From a virus (Duplodnaviria > Caudoviricetes), in the IMG/VR virus record IMGVR_UViG_3300050500_000423, positions 1-64,000 of that record: DNA of 64,000 bases, one strand, 5' to 3'. Position numbers and translations under genes: made by a program. The notes below the pieces were generated by a model. That model did no database searches, had not been told where the DNA came from, and worked only from the letters and a program-made list of their open reading frames with translations. Below are positions 2,184 to 63,154 of this stretch, one piece after another. How positions within the stretch are numbered: the first letter of the stretch is position 1; each line of letters starts with the position of its first letter.

Positions 2184-2204
2184 ACTGGATACGCCAACTA
2201 TACA
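2184..2204 (-). promoter_or_regulatory. Repeated phage promoter motif, copy 1 (TGTATAGTTGGCGTATCCAGT)
   Basis: Extended -10-like TGTATAGT followed by a conserved tail; identical copies at 6214-6234 and 41684-41704; RBS and start codon downstream. Confidence 0.7.
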
Positions 2205-2263
2205 GGAGAGGTGGGGAGGGGGGGTACGCCGCCGGGGTCGAACGAGCGGCTAGGGTCTCGTCC

Positions 2264-6213: not shown

Positions 6214-6234
6214 ACTGGATACGCCAACTATACA
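6214..6234 (-). promoter_or_regulatory. Repeated promoter motif, copy 2
   Basis: TGTATAGTTGGCGTATCCAGT, identical to copy 1; heads the 6193->3564 operon. Confidence 0.7.
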
Positions 6235-6267
6235 CGGGCGGCTCCGCGGAGTCGAGTACGGGGTAGC

Positions 6268-6706: not shown

Positions 6707-6748
6707 TAGCAACCCGCTCCCCCGCCGTGTATAGTTCGCGTATCCAGT
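6707..6748 (+). promoter_or_regulatory. Repeated promoter motif, copy 3 (TAGCAA-N17-TATAGT + TCGCGTATCCAGT)
   Basis: 17-bp spacing; 6728-6770 nearly identical to 30708-30750; RBS GGAGG then ATG 6776. Confidence 0.72.
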
Positions 6749-30689: not shown

Positions 30690-30728
30690 CAACCCACCGC
30701 ACCGTCCTGTATAGTTCGCGTATCCAGT
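30687..30728 (+). promoter_or_regulatory. Repeated promoter motif, copy 4
   Basis: TAGCAA-N17-TATAGT TCGCGTATCCAGT; near-identical to copy 3. Confidence 0.72.
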
Positions 30729-41683: not shown

Positions 41684-41704
41684 ACTGGATACGCCAACTA
41701 TACA
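41684..41704 (-). promoter_or_regulatory. Repeated promoter motif, copy 5
   Basis: TGTATAGTTGGCGTATCCAGT, identical to copies 1 and 2. Confidence 0.7.
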
Positions 41705-41773
41705 CCCGATGGTGGCGGGGGGTAGACCCCGCGGCGTACTCTCCCAGGTACTCGATCGAGAGGACCCCTGCCG

Positions 41774-52136: not shown

Positions 52137-52312
52137 TGCCCGACGTACTCCGCGCTCTCGTGACCTTCGACGTCGAACCCCTCGATGCGACCGGCCGAGT
52201 CGTCGCGGTCTCCGCCGCGCTCAGCGTCGCGGAGGGCGACAGCCATCCGACTGGCGCGAAGCCGCTTCTCCTCGGAGTGATCGACCTCGACGTGGAGGAC
52301 GAGCCGTCGTGA
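52136..52312 (+). CDS. small hypothetical protein (not in the ORF track)
   Basis: MPDVLRALVTFDVEPLDATGRVVAVSAAL...; overlaps both neighbours. Confidence 0.45.
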   Translation: MPDVLRALVTFDVEPLDATGRVVAVSAALSVAEGDSHPTGAKPLLLGVIDLDVEDEPS

Positions 52313-55300
52313 GAGCAGCACCGATCCCCCGCCGAGCTCGCCAAGCAGCCGTTCAGCCCGTCACGAGCGCCCCGTCGAGTGGCGTCATCCTCGCTCGCGG
52401 GAACCGTTCCCGTGGTCTCGCCCTGCGCGAGAACCGGTACTACGCCGACTATCAGTCCTGGCAGTTCCCGGCACGGCACGCCGCCCGCACTGTCGGGGTC
52501 GCGCGCATGGCCGCGAACATGGTCGCTCAGACCGCGTCGCGCGTGCTGCTCCACGTCGAGGAGCAGGACCCGCGCGGCGACTGGGCCGAGACCGAGAAGC
52601 CCGAACTCGCCCGCGAAATGGACGGCTACCGGAACGAGACCCTCGGCCAGGGATCAAGCGAACTCGTCCGCCTGCACACCTGGCAGTACCAAGTCCCCGG
52701 CGAAGGCGCGATCGTGAACCGCGACAACGCGTATGGGCAGGCCGAGTGGCTCGTCGTTGGTCTCCCCGCGATCGAGTGGAACCAGCCTCGCCCCGGGTTC
52801 GCGACGGTGAAGCTCCACCCGACGGGCCGGATCATGGAGGGACTCGCGTTCGAGGTTCCGCTCGAGCAGGTCGTTCACTTCTGGATGCCGGATGAGGACT
52901 TCCTCGGTCTCGCGGTCTCCCCGATGACCGCAGCGATGAACGACCTCGACCGGTACGTGGCGTTCACGCGGTACGCGGGCAGGCAGGCGCACAACTACCT
53001 GGCGATGAACGGTGCGTTCTGGACGCCGGGTGCAGCGCACGTCTCAGAGAACGCGTCCGACGAGGACGTCACCGACGGCGACCGGGAAAAGAAGTCCGAC
53101 CTCCTCCGGCAGTACGAGGAAATGGCTGCCGTGTCCATCTCCGACTTCGATGACGAGATGCTCGAGTCGGTCGTCCCGCCGATGATGTGGTGGGACGGCG
53201 CCAAGCCGGAATGGGTCGAGATCGGCCGGCCACTCGATGAGCAGGGCATCGCGCACCGGGCCGAAGCGATGATGGACTTCGCCCGCGACGTCGATGCTCC
53301 CGCCGCCCTGATCACCTCGGGTGGGTCGTCGGACGAGAACCACTGGAATGCGTGGATGACGAAGGAACGGTTCCTCGGAGCCGTCGCGCCGACCCTCGAC
53401 CGCGTCACGCACCAGGACCTCACGGTCACGTACCTGCATCCCCTCCTCCGGCTCCGTGGCGTCTCCGAGGCGGAACTCGGCCGGTACCGGGTCGGGTACG
53501 ACGCGAACCCGGTCATCAAGCAGCCCGACGAGTCGGAGAAGGCGCTCCGCGCCTGGATGGCGGGTCTCCTCGGAGCGAAGCCCGCGCTCGAGAAGATGGG
53601 TTTCGATCCCGACACGTTGGCGGGACCAGACGACTTGGAACGCCTCGCCGCGATCCTGTCGAACTTCGCCGGGGAGATCCCCACGGCGGACGCCCCCGAC
53701 GTGAACACCCCCGACGGTCCTGCTGGACCGGGGAACGTCAGCGAGGGACCGCCGCCGGGTCCACCGACCCCGGCGAACATGCTCCGGGGTCTGCTCCCGC
53801 ATCTCTACGACCGCCGGCAGCGTGCAGCACCGATCCGTACGAACGGGACAGCCACGGCGCGCGCTGCGGCGTCCTCGACGCTTCTCGCGGAGGCGCTGAA
53901 CCCGACAGACACGGGCGTCATGGTCTCGATCGACGTACCGCTCGAGCTGGCGCAGATGGTCGCCCTCCCCGACGGTGAACCCCCCGAGGGGCTGCACCTG
54001 ACGCTCGCGTTCGTTCTCGGCGAAGCCGCCGAGCTTCCGCAGGCGCTCCACGACGCCCTCATCACCGCGGCGCAGGAAGCGGCCGCCGAGACGGGTCCGA
54101 TTCACGTCTCGCTCTCCCACGTCGAGAGGTTCGCCCCGAACGAGGAGGGGATGCAGCCGGTCACGCTCGTGGACTCCGGCCCTGCCGTCCCTGAGCTCGC
54201 CTCTCGCCTCCGGGTCGCCCTCGACGCTGCGTCGATCCCCTACAGCGACGATCACGGCTTCCGGGCGCATATGACGCTCGGGTACTACCCGGAGGGCGAG
54301 GGACCGGAGTCCGGTCCGCTCGAGACCCCCGTCGAGTTCGACGCCTCCGGCATCGGCGTGCATTGGGGACCCGAGGTACTCGCTGTCCCTTTCGGCGGTA
54401 GCAAGGCGGCGACGGCGTCCGTTCGGGTCGAGCATGCCCCCGAGCAGCCGAGCGTGGCCGCGACAGCAGCCGTCTCGACGGTCGGGTCGCAGGCACGCCG
54501 CGAGGTCACCGCGGCACGCCGGACGCTCTCTCGCCTGGCTCGGGTCCGCCGGGATGTCGCTCGGCAACTACTCGGCGGGGCGGAAGCAGCGTTCGCGGCG
54601 GCGCTCAACCAGGCCGGGGTACGGGCGAGAACGAAGGCAGCGAACAAGCATGGTCGGGGACTCGCCGCGTCCGTGAGAGCAGCGTTCGAGCAGGGCGAGG
54701 GTCTCCGGCCGTTCTTCGGGACGCTCGGCATCACGGAGGCCGAGCTTCTCCGTGGAGCGTTCGATGAGTTCCAGGGGCAGGCAGCGGCATGGCTGGCGTA
54801 CGCCCGTGAGGAGCAACGTCAGGTCGCTCAGGACGCCGGGTACGACCCGTCTGCCCTCGGGGCAGCGTCAGAGGACGACGAGACCTCCGCAGCCGCCGCG
54901 ATGTTCCTCGCTGCCTCACTGCTCGCCCTCGCCCGCGGTCGTATCCTCGCCGGCACCGACGCAGCGAACCCGAACGGCCCCGGCGAGGTCTCCGGCGCGG
55001 TCCCCGCCTCGATCGTCGGCGCGACGCTCGCCGTCGCCGAGGGTTCCGCTCTCGGCGCGCTCGGGGAATCCCCCGACCTTCTGCCCGAACTCCGACCGAC
55101 GAGACGTATCCCGCTCGACGCGTCGATCCGGTCGCAACTCTCGGTCCGTCTCGACGTGATCCTCTCCACCGCGAAGCCTGCCGGGACTCGCGAAGCGGGA
55201 CGCCTCGCGAAGGTCAGCGACCGGCTCGTGCAGGCACCCACGGAGTACGTCTGGGTCCACGGCTTCTACGCGTCGCCCAAGACGACGTTCGACCCGCACC

Positions 55301-55482
55301 TCCGCCTCGAGGGGCACCGGACGAACAACCCGGAGACCGACCCGGCGTACGTGAACCCGGGTCCGTGGCCGGACCCGGGGACGTGGCCGTTCTTCCAGCC
55401 GGCGGATCATCTCGGCTGCACGTGCGCGCAGATAGCGCAGGTCGACTCGACCCTCTCGACCCTCATCGACGCGCTCGCCTGA
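52309..55482 (+). CDS. Portal protein fused to a 2H phosphoesterase and a MuF-like head-morphogenesis domain
   Basis: Follows terL; portal-like N-terminal ~450 aa; HLT (53995) and HMT (54268) 2H motifs; C-terminal PADHLGCTC. Confidence 0.75.
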   Translation: MRAAPIPRRARQAAVQPVTSAPSSGVILARGNRSRGLALRENRYYADYQSWQFPARHAARTVGVARMAANMVAQTASRVLLHVEEQDPRGDWAETEKPELAREMDGYRNETLGQGSSELVRLHTWQYQVPGEGAIVNRDNAYGQAEWLVVGLPAIEWNQPRPGFATVKLHPTGRIMEGLAFEVPLEQVVHFWMPDEDFLGLAVSPMTAAMNDLDRYVAFTRYAGRQAHNYLAMNGAFWTPGAAHVSENASDEDVTDGDREKKSDLLRQYEEMAAVSISDFDDEMLESVVPPMMWWDGAKPEWVEIGRPLDEQGIAHRAEAMMDFARDVDAPAALITSGGSSDENHWNAWMTKERFLGAVAPTLDRVTHQDLTVTYLHPLLRLRGVSEAELGRYRVGYDANPVIKQPDESEKALRAWMAGLLGAKPALEKMGFDPDTLAGPDDLERLAAILSNFAGEIPTADAPDVNTPDGPAGPGNVSEGPPPGPPTPANMLRGLLPHLYDRRQRAAPIRTNGTATARAAASSTLLAEALNPTDTGVMVSIDVPLELAQMVALPDGEPPEGLHLTLAFVLGEAAELPQALHDALITAAQEAAAETGPIHVSLSHVERFAPNEEGMQPVTLVDSGPAVPELASRLRVALDAASIPYSDDHGFRAHMTLGYYPEGEGPESGPLETPVEFDASGIGVHWGPEVLAVPFGGSKAATASVRVEHAPEQPSVAATAAVSTVGSQARREVTAARRTLSRLARVRRDVARQLLGGAEAAFAAALNQAGVRARTKAANKHGRGLAASVRAAFEQGEGLRPFFGTLGITEAELLRGAFDEFQGQAAAWLAYAREEQRQVAQDAGYDPSALGAASEDDETSAAAAMFLAASLLALARGRILAGTDAANPNGPGEVSGAVPASIVGATLAVAEGSALGALGESPDLLPELRPTRRIPLDASIRSQLSVRLDVILSTAKPAGTREAGRLAKVSDRLVQAPTEYVWVHGFYASPKTTFDPHLRLEGHRTNNPETDPAYVNPGPWPDPGTWPFFQPADHLGCTCAQIAQVDSTLSTLIDALA

Positions 55483-57328: not shown

Positions 57329-57976
57329 GTGACTGACCGCGCTGGACCCGCGATCGACGCCGCACGCTCGTACGTCGGGACGACCCCAACGTCGGGACTC
57401 GCACAACTCGTGCTGCTGCTCCGACAGGGACTTGCCCCGTCAAGCACGATCCTCGAGATCGGCTGCGGCACGCTGCATCTCGCGAAGGCACTGCTCGTCT
57501 ACCTCGACACGGGCACGTACGCCGGCGTGGACCCGAACGCGCATCTCCGCGAGGCAGCCGTCGCGGACGACTCCGTCCTCGACCAACTCGTGCGGCTCAG
57601 CGGAGCGAAGTTCTCGACCGCGACAGACTTCTACGCACGAGACCTCGGCGCGGGCGAGTACGACTTCGTGTTCTCGCACTCGGTCCTGTCGCACGCGTCA
57701 CACGAGCAACTCGGGCAGTTCATGGACTCGATGAGTCGCCGGCTAGATGACGGCTCGTTCGGGATGGCGTCAGTGAACCTCGTTGACAACTTCGCGGACG
57801 AGACCGCGCGAGACGAGTGGGTCTACCCCGGTGCGGTGACCTTCCACGAGATGACGGTCCGCGCCGCGGCGCGCGCTGCGGGTCTCCGAATCATTCGCGA
57901 CCACGAAGCCCGCGACCTCTACCGCTCGTGGTGCCCGATCGAAACCCACGACTGGATCGTCCTTCGCCATGAGTGA
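57329..57976 (+). CDS. Class I SAM-dependent methyltransferase
   Basis: ILEIGCGTL...YAGVDP...YDFVFSHSVLSH. Confidence 0.82.
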   Translation: MTDRAGPAIDAARSYVGTTPTSGLAQLVLLLRQGLAPSSTILEIGCGTLHLAKALLVYLDTGTYAGVDPNAHLREAAVADDSVLDQLVRLSGAKFSTATDFYARDLGAGEYDFVFSHSVLSHASHEQLGQFMDSMSRRLDDGSFGMASVNLVDNFADETARDEWVYPGAVTFHEMTVRAAARAAGLRIIRDHEARDLYRSWCPIETHDWIVLRHE

Positions 57977-58835
57977 GCCGCACGACGGTTCAGACCTCGT
58001 CATCGTGACGCCGGTCTGGCGTCGCACCACGAACCTCGCTCGCGTGCTCACGTCGGCACTCGATACCGTCCCGGCCGCGCACTTCCTGTTCGTCGCGTCC
58101 GTCGAGGACCGCGTCGTCATCGACGCGCTCGACGACCTGCTCGACGTCGACTACCTCCTCCTCCCCGGAGCAGGCGGCGGACAGGGCGACTACGCCCGGA
58201 AGATCAACGCCGGGTATCAGGCGACGACAGAGCCGTTCATCTTCACGGCAGCGGACGACCTTCGCTACACGCCCGGCTGGTACCACGCCGCGCGCGCGTT
58301 GACGGTCTGCCCACACGGCGACGAGACGTGCCCCTGCCAGGACGGCGACGTATGTCACTACGAGGGCGAGCAACCGTTCGCGTGCCCAACGACACGGGCC
58401 GTGGGATGCGTCGAGTGCCGACGCGTCGGCGTCGTCGGCACCGTCGATGACACGAACCCGAGGACGATCGCCGGCGAGCACTCGACGCACTCCCTCGTTG
58501 CCCGCTGGTACGCCGACTGCTGCGCCGTCTCCGATCAGCCCGGCGCCATCTACCACGAGGGCTACTACCACGAATTCTGCGACGATGAATTGGTGAGGAC
58601 GGCGATCCACCGCGGCGCGTACGGCCATGCGTTCGACGCCCACGTCGAGCACCTTCACCCGATGGGGAACAAGGCGCCCGACGACGAGACGTACCGGCGG
58701 GGCCGGTCGAAGTCGATGCTCTCCCGGAAGCTCTTCTCCGACCGAGCGCCGCTCTGGGGGGATCAGCCGCGGTACCAGCGGCGGCAGGTGTTCGCGAAGC
58801 GACCCGGGGTAGCGAAGCAGCGGAAGATGCCGTGA
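57969..58835 (+). CDS. Glycosyltransferase family 2 (GT-A fold)
   Basis: VIVTPV, YARKINAG, FTAADD, HEFCDDE, VEHLHP. Confidence 0.8.
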   Translation: MSEPHDGSDLVIVTPVWRRTTNLARVLTSALDTVPAAHFLFVASVEDRVVIDALDDLLDVDYLLLPGAGGGQGDYARKINAGYQATTEPFIFTAADDLRYTPGWYHAARALTVCPHGDETCPCQDGDVCHYEGEQPFACPTTRAVGCVECRRVGVVGTVDDTNPRTIAGEHSTHSLVARWYADCCAVSDQPGAIYHEGYYHEFCDDELVRTAIHRGAYGHAFDAHVEHLHPMGNKAPDDETYRRGRSKSMLSRKLFSDRAPLWGDQPRYQRRQVFAKRPGVAKQRKMP

Positions 58836-59620
58836 CCGTCCGCGCGTATACGGCGAACTACGGCGGGCGTGACCGAGCGTGGCCGCAGGTCGAACAGTCG
58901 ATCCCTGTCGAGTGGGTCTACTTCACGGACATCGACGAGGTCGCCCCGGCACCGTGGACGACGATCCAGCAGTTCCCGAACCCGGAGTTGCATCGGAACC
59001 TCGCGGCGAAGTGGTACAAGACGCACCCGTTCGGCGTCGGAGAATGGGACGACGACGCGAGGTACGCCATCTGGATCGACGCGTCGATGGAGGTCACGAA
59101 CCCCCGCTTCGCTGCGGAGGCGATCGCGTCCCTCGAGGAGCGTCCCGTCGCAGCTTGGGCGCATCCCCGCCGGGACTGCATCTACGAGGAGGCGAAGGCG
59201 GCGTTGACGTACGAGAGCGTCGACGATCGGTACGCCGACCAACCCGTGCTCGAGCAGGTCGCGTCCTATCGCGCCGAGGGACACCCGGAACACGGCGGGC
59301 TGTACGCGTGCGGCACGATCGTCTGGACCCGCGACGCGATACCGCTCGGGGAGGCATGGTGGGACGAGTGCGTCCGCTGGTCGATGCAGGATCAACTCTC
59401 GTTCCCCGTCGTCGCTCGTCGCCTCGGTATCCGACCGGCCGTGTTCCCCGTCGGGCAGATCGAGCACCGCACCCGCTCGCGAGTCGCGCGAGCGCCGCAG
59501 AACTTCTCCCGGTCGCGCTCGGGCGCGCGGGAAGTCGGCAGCCCGACCGCTGCTGGCGAGGTACTGCTCGGCAACCGGTGGTTGACGATCCACCCTCACG
59601 TCCCCGGCACCGACCGGTAG
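58832..59620 (+). CDS. DUF616-like glycosyltransferase
   Basis: YTANYGGRD, YFTD, KWYK, IWIDAS, HP.RDCIYEE, QDQLSF. Confidence 0.75.
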   Translation: MTVRAYTANYGGRDRAWPQVEQSIPVEWVYFTDIDEVAPAPWTTIQQFPNPELHRNLAAKWYKTHPFGVGEWDDDARYAIWIDASMEVTNPRFAAEAIASLEERPVAAWAHPRRDCIYEEAKAALTYESVDDRYADQPVLEQVASYRAEGHPEHGGLYACGTIVWTRDAIPLGEAWWDECVRWSMQDQLSFPVVARRLGIRPAVFPVGQIEHRTRSRVARAPQNFSRSRSGAREVGSPTAAGEVLLGNRWLTIHPHVPGTDR

Positions 59621-59646
59621 CTATTAGTTCTAATAGGAGAGAGCCC

Positions 59647-60324
59647 GTGGACTTCCGTGCCCCGTTCAGCGACCCCGCCGCGTTCGCCTCGGCGGAGCCG
59701 TTCCCGCACGCGATCGTGGACGACTGGTTCGACCCTGTCGACCTCGATGACGCCCTCGTCTGGTTCCCGCCCCCCAGCGATTCCCGCTGGCACTGGTTCG
59801 ATGCCCCGCACGAGGTCAGGAAGGCGCAGTACGACGACGAGAAGGCGTACGAGGTCCCCGGATGCGGACGACTTCTCCGGGTCCTCACGAGCGCGCCGTT
59901 CGTCGGTGCTCTCTCCGAGTTGACCGGCATCGAGGCGCTGATCCCCGACCTTGTCGGAGGAGGGCTGCACCTGACGCTCGCGGGCGGGTTCCTCGGCGTT
60001 CACACGGACTCCTCGACCGACTTCTCCAACCGGGGTCTCTACCGCCGTCTGAACGTCCTTCTCTTCCTGAACGAGGGCTGGAAGCCAGGCGACGGCGGCG
60101 AGCTCGTGCTCGAGCGAGCAGGTACCCCGACCGGTCTCCGCGTCGATCCGTTGCACAACCGGCTCGTGATCTTCCGGACGGCGCATGACACGCTCCACGG
60201 CCATCCGAACCCGTGGGAACGGCCGGTCGTCCCCCGCCGGTCGCTCGCGGCGTACTACTACACCGAGGACCCCCCGCCGGACTACGTCGGGGACCGGACG
60301 ACAACCTTCGTGGAGGGCAGGTGA
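59647..60324 (+). CDS. 2OG-Fe(II) oxygenase
   Basis: PFPHAIVDD, GGGLH, HTD, RRLNVLLFLN, GGEL, HNRLVIF, HGH, RRSLA. Confidence 0.85.
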   Translation: MDFRAPFSDPAAFASAEPFPHAIVDDWFDPVDLDDALVWFPPPSDSRWHWFDAPHEVRKAQYDDEKAYEVPGCGRLLRVLTSAPFVGALSELTGIEALIPDLVGGGLHLTLAGGFLGVHTDSSTDFSNRGLYRRLNVLLFLNEGWKPGDGGELVLERAGTPTGLRVDPLHNRLVIFRTAHDTLHGHPNPWERPVVPRRSLAAYYYTEDPPPDYVGDRTTTFVEGR

Positions 60325-60896
60325 CCGATCAGCCGACCGTGCAGAACGTCGGAGCGTGGGACGAGCTCTACGCCGACCTCGACCCGAACCGGCCGTTCCT
60401 CTACGGCGACCCCGTCACGTACCGCATGGCCGGCGAGTGGTTCGCGGAAATCGGACCCGGCGCGCTCATCGAGGATTGGGGATGCGGCGGCGGTGCGCTC
60501 CGGCCGTTCGTCCGCGCCGACCAGCAGTACCGCGGCATCGACGGGTCACATACCCCGCACGCCGACATCGTCACGGATCTCGCGGCGTACCAGAGCGACG
60601 CGACGTGCATCCTCCTCCGCCACGTCCTCGAGCACTCCTACGAGTGGGAGACGATCCTCGACAACGCGGTGAAGAGCTTCTCCCGGCGGCTCTGCGTCGT
60701 GCTCTTCACGCCGCTGGTCGAACGGACCGAGGTCCTGATGACGGAGCCGGACTTCCGAGACGTGCCCGTGATCGCGTTCCGGATCGAGGACCTCCTCGAC
60801 CGGCTCGAGCCGGGGATGGACGCCAAGGTCGAGCGCGTCGAAGGGACCCGCTGCGCGTACGACGCAGAGCACATCGTCCGCATCGTCCGCCTGTGA
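60321..60896 (+). CDS. Class I SAM-dependent methyltransferase
   Basis: IEDWGCGGG, YRGIDGS, LLRHVLEH. Confidence 0.75.
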   Translation: MTDQPTVQNVGAWDELYADLDPNRPFLYGDPVTYRMAGEWFAEIGPGALIEDWGCGGGALRPFVRADQQYRGIDGSHTPHADIVTDLAAYQSDATCILLRHVLEHSYEWETILDNAVKSFSRRLCVVLFTPLVERTEVLMTEPDFRDVPVIAFRIEDLLDRLEPGMDAKVERVEGTRCAYDAEHIVRIVRL

Positions 60897-62329
60897 CGGT
60901 CTCGCTCGTCGTTCCCTTCCGGTCAGGTGACCCGCACCGCGACCGCGCCTGGGAGTACGTCCGGAGCCGCTACCAGGCCGAGCACCCCGAGTGGGAACTC
61001 GTCGTTGATGGCGGCACGGACGGTCCCTGGTCGAAGGGTTCCGCTGTCGACGCCGCAGTAGCTCGCGCGACGGGCGACATCTTCGTGATCGCGGACGCCG
61101 ACCTCTACGTCGCTGCGGAAGCCCTCGACCGCTGCGTCTCGGCCGTTGCAGACGGCGCCGCCTGGTCGCAGCCGCACCGAGAGGTGTTCCGTCTCTCCGC
61201 CGAGACGACGGCGTCCCTGTACGCCGGGAAGTTCGACCCGACTCCCCGCCCGGTCCGGTTGCCCCTAGCTGAGCAGAACGGCACCATCGGACCTGCTGGC
61301 GGCGGGATCGTGGTCTGCTCCCGTGCAAGCTTCGATCTCTCCGGCGGGATCGACCCGCGGTTCACCGAGTGGGGCGGCGAGGACATCTCTTTTGCTCGCG
61401 CGCTCGACACGCTGGCCGGCCCGTGCGTCCGGTTCCGTGCCCCGATGATCCACCTCTGGCATCCGCCGATGCCACGACGGACGGGACACCGGGCAAGCCG
61501 CGAGAACGAGCTCGTCGCCGCCGCGTACCTCGACGCGTCGGGTATCCCGGCCGCGATGCGTCGCGTCGTTCGCGACCGGTCCCTCACGCCGCTTGCCCCC
61601 CCGAAGGTCTCAGTCGCGGTGATGGCACACCCACGACGAGCTGCGATGGTCGAGGACCTCCTCGCGTCGATCGGTGGGCACGTCGAGGTCGCCTGGGATC
61701 AGGAGAACCGCGAGTGGGAGACCGGCCGGCGGGCGTTACTCGCGTACGACCCGTCCGCCGAGTGGCACGTCGTCGTACAGGACGACGCGATCGTCTGCGG
61801 CGACTTCCGCGCGTCTGTCGCTCACCTCGCAGCGCGTCACACGGAGAGCGAAGTCATCGGCCTCTATCTCGGAGCCGTTCGACCCTACGGTGCCGCCGTC
61901 GAACGGGCAGTCACGGCAGCGGAACGCGCCGGCGCGTCATGGGTGCTCTCCGAACGGCTGATGTGGGGGGTCGGCACCGCGTTTCCCGTCGCAGCACTCG
62001 ACGCGCTCGTTCACGCCGCTGACCGCGCGCGACCCGCGGAGTACGACTTCCGTCTCTCCGTTGCCATGCGCGTGACCGGCATGACGGCGCGGTACTCGTT
62101 GCCGTCACTGGTGGATCACCGGCAGGGACCGTCGATCCTGAACCATCCCGACAACGCGCGACACGCACGACGATTCATCGGCAGCGACACGTCCGCGCTC
62201 GACCTCGTCTGGTCAACGATGTGCGTCGCGGTCGAGACCCCTCGCCCGGGTCGCGTCACGTACCCGGGTCGCCGCGCGGAACGACCCGAGGTTGTCCGAC
62301 GCGTGGGTCGGAGCGTCCCCACCGAGTAG
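60893..62329 (+). CDS. Two-domain glycosyltransferase (GT2/galactosyltransferase-like plus a second GT-A domain)
   Basis: VVPFR, IADAD, GGIDPRFTEWGGED, HLWH; then VMAHPRR, VVVQDDA, SLVDH. Confidence 0.78.
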   Translation: MTVSLVVPFRSGDPHRDRAWEYVRSRYQAEHPEWELVVDGGTDGPWSKGSAVDAAVARATGDIFVIADADLYVAAEALDRCVSAVADGAAWSQPHREVFRLSAETTASLYAGKFDPTPRPVRLPLAEQNGTIGPAGGGIVVCSRASFDLSGGIDPRFTEWGGEDISFARALDTLAGPCVRFRAPMIHLWHPPMPRRTGHRASRENELVAAAYLDASGIPAAMRRVVRDRSLTPLAPPKVSVAVMAHPRRAAMVEDLLASIGGHVEVAWDQENREWETGRRALLAYDPSAEWHVVVQDDAIVCGDFRASVAHLAARHTESEVIGLYLGAVRPYGAAVERAVTAAERAGASWVLSERLMWGVGTAFPVAALDALVHAADRARPAEYDFRLSVAMRVTGMTARYSLPSLVDHRQGPSILNHPDNARHARRFIGSDTSALDLVWSTMCVAVETPRPGRVTYPGRRAERPEVVRRVGRSVPTE

Positions 62330-62395: not shown

Positions 62396-62890
62396 GTGAC
62401 TCACATCGCATGGGTCGACGCAGTCGTCGTCACCGCGCTCGTGGTCGGGTCGCTCTGGACGATCTGGCGGAAGGCGATACGTCCCTCGATCCGAGCCGTG
62501 AACCGACTCGCGGACACGATCACGGTCGCGAACCAGCTTCTCGATGACGCTCCCGTCCTCGCCGCGATCGCGGAAGTCGCCCCCGCCTTGCAGGACATCG
62601 CGGCGGAGTTCCGCCCGAACCACGGCGGGTCGCTCCGGGACGTGGTCGACAGCATCGACCGGAAGGCCGACACCGCGGCGGCGGCAGCGACCGATGCCCG
62701 CACCGAAGCGGTTCACGCTGCGGCGATCGCTGACGAGACCCGGACGCTCGCAGCGTCAGCAGCGACGAACGCCGCGGTCGCGTCGGGTATGGCAGAGGAC
62801 ACGGCGATCGAAGTCATCGCGCTCCGTCAGCGCCTCGACGCGCATCTCGCGGCAGAAGAGGAACGGTCGAACCCGCCTCCCGACGTATGA
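62396..62890 (+). CDS. Membrane-anchored coiled-coil protein (holin/spanin-region type)
   Basis: N-terminal TM; EFRPNHGGSLRDVVD. Confidence 0.55.
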   Translation: MTHIAWVDAVVVTALVVGSLWTIWRKAIRPSIRAVNRLADTITVANQLLDDAPVLAAIAEVAPALQDIAAEFRPNHGGSLRDVVDSIDRKADTAAAAATDARTEAVHAAAIADETRTLAASAATNAAVASGMAEDTAIEVIALRQRLDAHLAAEEERSNPPPDV

Positions 62891-62891
62891 C

Positions 62892-62935
62892 GCGGCGACG
62901 GCTCCGGTGATCAGCCGGAGCCGTCCTGTCGCCGC
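62892..62935. terminator. Strong hairpin between convergent transcription units
   Basis: 11-bp perfect stem GACGGCTCCGG/CCGGAGCCGTC with TGATCAG loop; no clear U-tract. Confidence 0.4.
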
Positions 62936-63021
62936 TGTACGCAGGGCCGGGGTTACCGGCGGGGGTCCACCACCCGACGCGAGGTCGGGACCGTTCCTCT
63001 AGCCCCTAGAGCCTAGAGCGA

Positions 63022-63094
63022 TGGTGGACCGGAGGGGAGTCGAACCCCCGAGGGACTCTTGATCAGGGAGACCCCGGCAACCGTGCCCCGGCCC
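63022..63094 (-). ncRNA. tRNA-like RNA with alanine identity (mini tmRNA-like tRNA domain)
   Basis: GGGCCGG/CCGGTCC acceptor stem with G3.U70, A73 and encoded CCA; T arm GGGGG-TTCGACT-CCCCT; aberrant D arm; no Ala anticodon. Confidence 0.7.
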
Positions 63095-63133
63095 GGTCTC
63101 TGCATCATCGTCCGGGGGTACGACGCTCATCCG

Positions 63134-63154
63134 TGTATAGTTCGCGTACCAACG
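63134..63154 (+). promoter_or_regulatory. Repeated promoter motif, copy 6 (divergent tail)
   Basis: TGTATAGTTCGCGTA matches copies 3 and 4 over 15 nt. Confidence 0.6.

Follow-up and report, generated by a model that had tools for sequence, protein, structure and literature searches.

A putative alanine-type tRNA look-alike with a truncated D arm in a phage genome, and its predicted relatives in bacteria and mobile elements

We report a putative 73-nt RNA gene from a phage genome that joins the acceptor end of an alanine tRNA to a rebuilt lower half. Comparison of sequences places it in a predicted, widespread and unannotated family of tRNA-Ala-derived RNAs (68 to 73 nt), of which the phage copy is an orphan. 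The reading that we favour, and that we hold to be moderately probable, is an RNase P-processed, alanine-chargeable tRNA mimic that acts through its anticodon-like arm; the processing, the charging and the cellular role are the parts that we infer. If such RNAs are made and charged, they would represent a class of alanine-accepting tRNA look-alikes that is missed by standard tRNA finders and by Rfam, and that spans phages, integrative islands, CPR bacteria, Planctomycetota and Actinomycetota.

The phage genome and the tRNA-like element

The stretch of DNA analysed here (the window, 64,000 nt) makes up the opening 64 kb of an IMG/VR virus record of 87,621 bp, which has direct terminal repeats and is rated complete. 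The genome has a GC content of 68%, its genes read normally with genetic code 11, and nearly all of them are held on the plus strand. The host is probably an actinobacterium, because relatives of the portal protein (about 25% identity) are found almost only in phages of Actinobacteria. The sole standard tRNA of the phage is a tRNA-Gly(UCC) at genome positions 86609-86683. Domains PF00589 and PF00239 (tyrosine and serine recombinases) are absent from the complete 87.6-kb genome, and a search for relatives of the phage, done with the two genes upstream of the element at 63022-63094, found no close ones.

Two further features of this genome are recorded here as separate observations. The portal protein (window 52309-55482, plus strand) carries a fused 2H phosphoesterase domain (LigT / 2'-5' RNA ligase-like, residues ~520-690), which may point to RNA-end repair, in a genome that has a putative tRNA mimic as well. 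In addition, a run of glycosyltransferase genes lies just upstream of the tRNA-like element (57969-62329, plus strand); it includes a TOD1/MUCI70-like gene and a gene for a 714-aa two-domain glucosyl/galactosyl transferase, and may serve DNA or cell-surface modification.

The minus strand at 63022-63094, when re-read, has exactly the sequence given in a preliminary description of this DNA, and the alanine identity without an alanine anticodon that was claimed there holds: G3.U70 and A73 are both present and the central loop contains CUGAUCA. The parts of the element and its flanks are listed in Table 1. With tRNA-Ala and the alanine minihelix the element shares the 7-bp acceptor stem with G3.U70, the discriminator A73, the CCA end and a 5-bp T arm with a canonical loop (GTTCRANYC-type). 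It departs from tRNA-Ala, and from canonical tRNA in general, in everything below. More specifically, the D hairpin abuts the acceptor stem, so that the U8/N9 linker is absent; the D arm has 4 bp and a loop of 4 nt rather than 7-11 nt; the central stem is longer, with 8 layers including a U.U mismatch in place of a 5-bp anticodon stem; the central loop has 9 nt rather than 7 nt with U33 and a purine at 37, and holds no NGC anticodon; and the variable region is 2 nt rather than 4-5 nt.

Table 1. Coordinates of the tRNA-like element, its parts and its flanking features (window positions)
Feature	Position	Strand	Details and basis
Putative tRNA-like RNA gene, 73 nt including encoded CCA	63022..63094	-	Sequence; model R1 71.7 bits; leave-one-out model R2 69.5 bits
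Acceptor stem, 5' strand, GGGCCGG	63088..63094	-	7 bp with 63026-63032, including G3.U70
Shortened D hairpin, GGCA-CGGU-UGCC	63076..63087	-	4 bp, loop CGGU; sequence and fold
Long central (anticodon-like) hairpin	63052..63075	-	4 bp, U.U mismatch, 3 bp; 9-nt loop including CUGAUCA; folds
Linker, 2 nt	63050..63051	-	
Canonical T arm	63033..63049	-	5 bp, loop UUCGACU; sequence, Rfam match
Acceptor stem, 3' strand	63026..63032	-	Sequence
Discriminator A73	63025	-	Sequence
Encoded CCA	63022..63024	-	Sequence
Small hairpin, starting 10 nt past CCA	62997..63011	-	6 bp, loop GGG; sequence
Palindromic GC-rich terminator-like hairpin, just past the stop of plus-strand gene 62396-62890	62897..62925	.	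Inverted repeat
Phage promoter-like motif, upstream of the divergent tas gene	63133..63144	+	Recurrent motif
tas gene, nuclease-less TIGR-Tas Nop-domain protein	63223..64000, to genome 64041	+	NCBIfam NF052498, E 1.4e-50, 172 bits, cut-off 100

The region is non-coding by GC-frame plot. True tRNA-Ala genes at the Planctomycetota loci L168 and L155 have exactly the last 27 nt of the element, its first 7 nt also match true tRNA-Ala genes, and many organisms have true tRNA-Ala genes with this acceptor stem. Folding of the single sequence yields a cloverleaf whose energy is no better than that of shuffled sequences (z -0.27), as expected at 68% GC. Fold energy is uninformative at this GC content, and significance therefore rests on comparison with relatives.

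The preliminary description had named an ordinary tRNA as an alternative, and this is not what standard finders report. ARAGORN (default, relaxed -ps and mitochondrial settings, tRNA and tmRNA modes) made no call at 63022-63094, its -ps80 output being noise, and Rfam at the gathering score gave no match to the element. In the loose mode of Rfam, partial sub-threshold matches were obtained to mascRNA, beta-tmRNA, permuted tmRNA and a tymovirus tRNA-like element, and any match to the tRNA clan stayed below 17.7 bits. The best of the loose matches was to mascRNA/menRNA (19.6 bits, E 0.21, against a gathering score of 42.5). The element and these RNAs share a small cloverleaf-like shape in which an acceptor stem and a T arm are kept and the other arms are shrunken, and the known mascRNA/menRNA-type elements are cut by RNase P. 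These known elements are, however, eukaryotic and stand at the 3' end of long RNAs, and the sub-threshold match implies no homology. No match to the exact 28-nt 3' end of the element was found in IMG/VR, and blastn of the element against cultured phages returned T-arm matches only.

The element occupies a gap of its own. It lies between the terminator-like hairpin of the preceding plus-strand gene and the promoter-like motif of tas, on the strand opposite to both flanking genes, which favours an independent small RNA gene. Nearly all other genes of the phage have the opposite orientation, and no minus-strand promoter was found for the element. The small hairpin past its CCA could be a 3' processing or stop element. 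The loop of the terminator-like hairpin shares UGAUCA with the central loop of the element, a 7-nt loop match that is at chance level (p 0.47). Six copies of the promoter-like motif were counted in the window, where 1.5 would be expected, and every one of them precedes a gene of the same orientation. The copies, at 2194-2205 (-), 6224-6235 (-), 6727-6738 (+), 30707-30718 (+), 41694-41705 (-) and 63133-63144 (+), are centred on TGTATAGT, followed by about 20 conserved bases.

The head-to-head arrangement with a Nop-domain gene was correctly noted in the preliminary description, and this neighbour is a TIGR-Tas protein (Table 1). A TIGR array with a 37-nt period begins at about genome position 64280, outside the window. 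The phage thus has a complete TIGR-Tas locus, made of the nuclease-less Tas, two tiny ORFs and a dual-repeat array (~genome 64280-64790; L001:2780-3121) with an edge repeat of 10 nt. A link between the element and this gene, which had been left for checking in homologous phages, was not borne out: 80 tas loci from IMG/VR were searched with ARAGORN, a motif scan and the family model, and none of them carries a tRNA or a family member. No tRNA-like RNA is mentioned in the TIGR-Tas papers either. The reading of the element as a TIGR-Tas accessory was ruled out on the count of the 80 loci, and its adjacency to tas is most likely incidental.

A predicted family of relatives with a common fold

When reference genomes were scanned for the 3' end of the element, most of the matches were true tRNA-Ala genes that share its acceptor stem; there were also a few look-alikes of 69-72 nt with the shrunken D hairpin. 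A pattern scan built on these look-alikes gave 29 metagenome loci and one viral locus, and a covariance model (R1) added members with different acceptor stems, including several per genome in Saccharibacteria and Uhrbacteria. The relatives number more than 37 distinct sequences and come from metagenomes, CPR bacteria, Planctomycetota, Actinomycetota and two other viral contigs. Members are present in at least 6 of the 151 Patescibacteria and at least 2 of the 151 Planctomycetota sampled, both frequencies being lower bounds from candidates that were scored in part. Some Actinomycetota carry members as well, and one member lies in the tRNA array of a jumbo phage and keeps a UGC triplet.

These RNAs have a common layout, with no linker at positions 8/9, a 4-bp D hairpin whose loop of 3-6 nt nearly always holds GG, and a central hairpin whose loop of 7-10 nt is not an alanine anticodon. 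The central hairpin is found in every relative, with 5-9 bp and a different sequence each time. In an alignment of 39 rows, which was fitted to the model, 94.8% of the cells pair, compared with 74.2% in shuffles, and none of 500 shuffles reaches 94.8%; double changes are seen in 18 of the 20 pairs and all four helices covary. Covariation scores 0.544, and no more than 0.137 once the partners are slid. Double changes affect all four pairs of the D helix across the family, and four of the five T-arm pairs covary.

A second covariance model (R2) was made from 36 relatives with the phage copy left out. It scores the phage copy at 69.5 bits (E 6.7e-18), within the range of the other members (37-81 bits), and the next score in the 87.6-kb genome is that of the true tRNA-Gly (15.3 bits). 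True tRNAs score 15-50 bits with the family model. Because a model built without it gives the phage element this score, we take the element to be a real member of the predicted family and not a product of chance.

The identity elements for alanine were followed across the family. All members have A73 and 36 of 37 have G3.U70, figures to be read with the way the first 24 members were gathered, as the pattern fixed the acceptor stem and the T loop and the conservation of G3.U70 is partly built in. The models learned G3.U70 from these pattern-fixed seeds and hence favour it; despite this bias, the searches also picked up true tRNAs with G-C at 3:70, at 28-50 bits. Covariation is seen in acceptor pairs 4:69 to 7:66 while G3.U70 stays, and among members with a differing acceptor sequence G3.U70 is kept in 9 of 10. 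The alanine identity looks selected, because G3.U70 and A73 persist while other acceptor pairs change.

Two Actinomycetota genomes hold identical 69-nt tRNA-like genes (L341:1501-1569, minus strand, and L342:1501-1569, plus strand) with a truncated D hairpin and a CAU loop. They have no G3.U70, and truncation of the D arm is therefore not confined to the alanine type.

Alanine-type tRNAs that depart from the standard form are known from several sources. Allo-tRNAs with G3:U70, alanine-charged variants of tRNA-Pro and mitochondrial tRNA-Ala(UAG) are sporadic and often found on mobile DNA. In allo-tRNAs the acceptor/T branch is 8/4 or 9/3 and the variable arm is long, whereas the family has a 7/5 branch and a truncated D arm; unlike allo-tRNAs, many family members also have a dedicated predicted antisense RNA. 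What the family shares with alanine-identity tRNAs bearing other anticodons is the combination of G3.U70 with a non-alanine anticodon (PMC7609411). The mitochondrial tRNAs with a reduced D arm and tRNA-Sec, which has a 4-nt D loop, show that tRNAs can function in translation with a minimal D region (PMC7609411), although their lineages and partners differ from those of the family. Our literature search found no bacterial or phage tRNA of this truncated architecture and no description of such a tRNA-like family.

Surroundings of the relatives and predicted antisense partners

In a Pirellulales integrative island, the element stands between a DUF1580 gene and a primase, and before the DUF1580 gene come a normal tRNA and then an integrase. 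Other relatives adjoin IS5 and IS1595 transposases and primase-helicases, some chromosomal members of Actinomycetota lie beside a HicB-like gene, and the CPR members are stand-alone modules. The ORF upstream of the Actinomycetota-type members is unrelated to the neighbouring gene of the phage, and no family was assigned to it.

For 21 relatives, both cellular and from mobile elements, we predict a neighbouring small RNA that is complementary to the 5' strand and the loop of the central arm. In 13 CPR-type members, a complement of 9-17 nt is located 40-72 nt downstream (at 150 nt in one of them), with p <=0.02 for each. This complement is directly preceded by predicted promoters, and the complementary part is the 5' end of the small RNA; the Actinomycetota member L335 has the same layout. 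In 8 Planctomycete-type members, the same segment is found as a direct copy 38-58 nt downstream (p <=0.005 in 7 of the 8, and marginal in L091, with p 0.095). A terminator on the opposite strand adjoins this copy, and the predicted antisense RNA of the Planctomycete-type members is therefore convergent. The z-scores of the partner duplexes range from -5.6 to -7.8. Because the partners target exactly the central arm, they mark this arm as the active, regulated end of the RNA. The phage copy has no antisense partner within 250 nt on either strand (z ~0) and none genome-wide above chance, and no partner was found for the high-GC Actinomycetota-type members or for the viral locus L264.

In having a short neighbouring RNA directed at a defined arm, the relatives resemble known antisense-RNA pairs, namely type I toxin-antitoxin systems, plasmid counter-transcripts and tRNA-spacer sponges; the length of the predicted complementarity and the presence of an own promoter and terminator are also as in known pairs. 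The family differs from these in that the target is a tRNA-shaped RNA and not an mRNA, and in that the phage copy stands without a partner. A split, two-piece tmRNA was considered for the RNA pairs of the CPR bacteria and was ruled out, as those genomes have a normal tmRNA.

Possible modes of action

AlaRS charges minihelices that bear G3.U70, and RNase P requires only the acceptor/T stack. In the mimic reading, which we favour, the transcript would be cut by RNase P, would keep or receive its CCA and would be charged by AlaRS, which reads only the acceptor stem. The RNA would then act through the exposed anticodon-like arm, possibly as a miscoding or non-decoding Ala-tRNA mimic or as a decoy for factors that read anticodon arms. 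The phage copy, because it has no antisense partner, would be unguarded. What speaks against miscoding is that it would hurt a lytic phage too. The AlaRS identity set, the rebuilt lower half and the antisense RNA of many members point to a regulated RNA that taps translation; if true, this bears on natural mistranslation, on phage-host conflict over tRNA and on RNA-only toxin-antidote or regulatory modules. The family may also offer a compact natural scaffold, a tRNA upper half with a programmable arm, and it suggests that genome annotation misses tRNA-derived genes whose D arm is truncated.

A bolder version, which we regard as quite doubtful, takes the family as an RNA-only effector-antidote module. 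An Ala-charged tRNA with a non-alanine and often enlarged anticodon loop would miscode or frameshift (the CPR triplet being often GUC/AUC, Asp-type), and the antisense RNA would unfold and silence its arm. The pair would serve mobile elements for addiction or for defence, and the phage would carry the unguarded effector for host takeover or counter-defence.

Two alternatives to the mimic reading also give the central arm a function. The RNA might be a decoder tRNA of unusual fold that is charged with alanine and reads a non-alanine codon (an Ile codon with GAU as the anticodon, an Asp codon with AUC, or, by means of the enlarged loop, a codon of four bases), with recoding, deliberate mistranslation or frameshifting as the outcome; we consider this unlikely. 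In known suppressor tRNAs, 8-nt loops lead to +1 frameshifting, and loops of this size are common among the relatives. The loop is anticodon-like, many relatives follow a YU-NNN-A pattern, the CPR-type triplets are mostly GUC/AUC (Asp-type) or GCC/ACC, the jumbo-phage member retains UGC within its tRNA array, and there are natural tRNAs that combine alanine identity with another anticodon (PMC7609411). However, the 9-nt loop of the phage element has G at 33 or C at 37, depending on the register, the element lacks U8, the D-loop core and the variable loop, and the tRNA model score lies below 17.7 bits. Moreover, the phage genes are normal under code 11, and miscoding would damage the phage's own proteins. 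Distinctly unlikely in our judgement is a decoy or sponge that soaks up a tRNA-recognising factor of the host or of a rival element (an anticodon nuclease, a tRNA-sensing defence system or an antisense RNA) and thereby protects the real tRNAs or frees the target. Phage tRNAs that evade anticodon nucleases are known and offer a precedent; relatives are carried by mobile elements, with transposases, a HicB-like antitoxin and primases as neighbours; the antisense partners show the arm to be a pairing surface; and the 2H domain of the portal protein may mean RNA-end repair. The arm is a copy of the primase-gene leader in the Planctomycete islands, where the RNA could thus compete for the counter-transcript. 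Yet a pure decoy gives no cause for the conserved G3.U70 and A73, no complementary RNA or DNA segment is found in the phage beyond chance, and no defence target was identified.

The remaining alternatives take the phage copy as a remnant or as part of another system. That it is a relic, a horizontally acquired family member no longer expressed or used in this phage, appears quite improbable: the lack of a minus-strand promoter and of an antisense partner, the strand opposite to nearly all genes and the failure to find phage relatives that would show its retention are in keeping with decay, but the four helices, the T loop, G3.U70, A73 and the CCA are all intact, the score of 69.5 bits falls within the family range of 37-81 bits, and the element has its own gap between a terminator and a promoter. 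We give very little credit to an origin as an attP site or as a host tRNA-Ala leftover from imprecise excision, the alternative that the preliminary description had framed as the att core of a host tRNA or tmRNA gene. The identity of the last 27 nt and the first 7 nt with true tRNA-Ala genes would fit it, as would the duplicated 3' end of the same tRNA-Ala in the L155 Planctomycetota genome, a typical integration scar. Against it, no tyrosine or serine recombinase exists in the complete 87.6-kb genome with its terminal repeats, the 5' half is conserved and covaries in relatives, which an att core would not need, and the L091 element lies 2.7 kb into an island whose integration site is another, normal tRNA. 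The attP reading was ruled out on the missing integrase and the conserved 5' half. The mini-tmRNA proposed in the preliminary description, a message-less tRNA-like domain that would bind SmpB and EF-Tu and disturb ribosome rescue, fared no better and is very improbable. With the tRNA-like domain of tmRNA the element has in common the alanine identity (G3.U70, A73), the CCA, the T arm, a reduced D region and the lack of a standard anticodon; the Rfam tmRNA models give weak matches of 17.7 bits (gathering score 84) and 14.7 bits (gathering score 47); and the viral contig L204 shows, with an RNA reduced to the tmRNA tRNA-like domain, that RNAs of this kind can exist. The Rfam matches, however, cover only the T arm and the acceptor, as in any tRNA-Ala, and the D region is a covarying 4-bp hairpin, not the stemless D loop of tmRNA. 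The P2 helix, the pseudoknots and the tag reading frame with its resume codon, which belong to tmRNA, are likewise missing from the element, and the four member genomes tested retain a standard, full-length tmRNA (114-168 bits).

Other unusual tRNA-like genes were recorded as side observations. Two 8-kb loci, L141 from a Pirellulaceae MAG and L123 from Stieleria magnilauensis, hold dense arrays of 20-30 tRNA genes, each with an aberrant alanine-type tRNA that has a UGC loop, an odd D region and no Rfam call. The RNA of L204 (1660-1740, plus strand, on a 69.5-kb IMG/VR contig) is 81 nt long. Its 5' end and D loop are of the tmRNA type, and a short P2-like helix, a T arm and an acceptor stem with G3.U70 are present as well; it has no message part. 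Finally, a recurrent tRNA-like group starting with GGGCCGGA was seen in L228, L211, L214, L223, L241, L261 and about 25 other viral loci. Its members, mostly below the Rfam gathering score, continue with CGGTTAYC, a short hairpin and a T arm, and the group is probably an odd class of phage tRNA with an unusual D arm.
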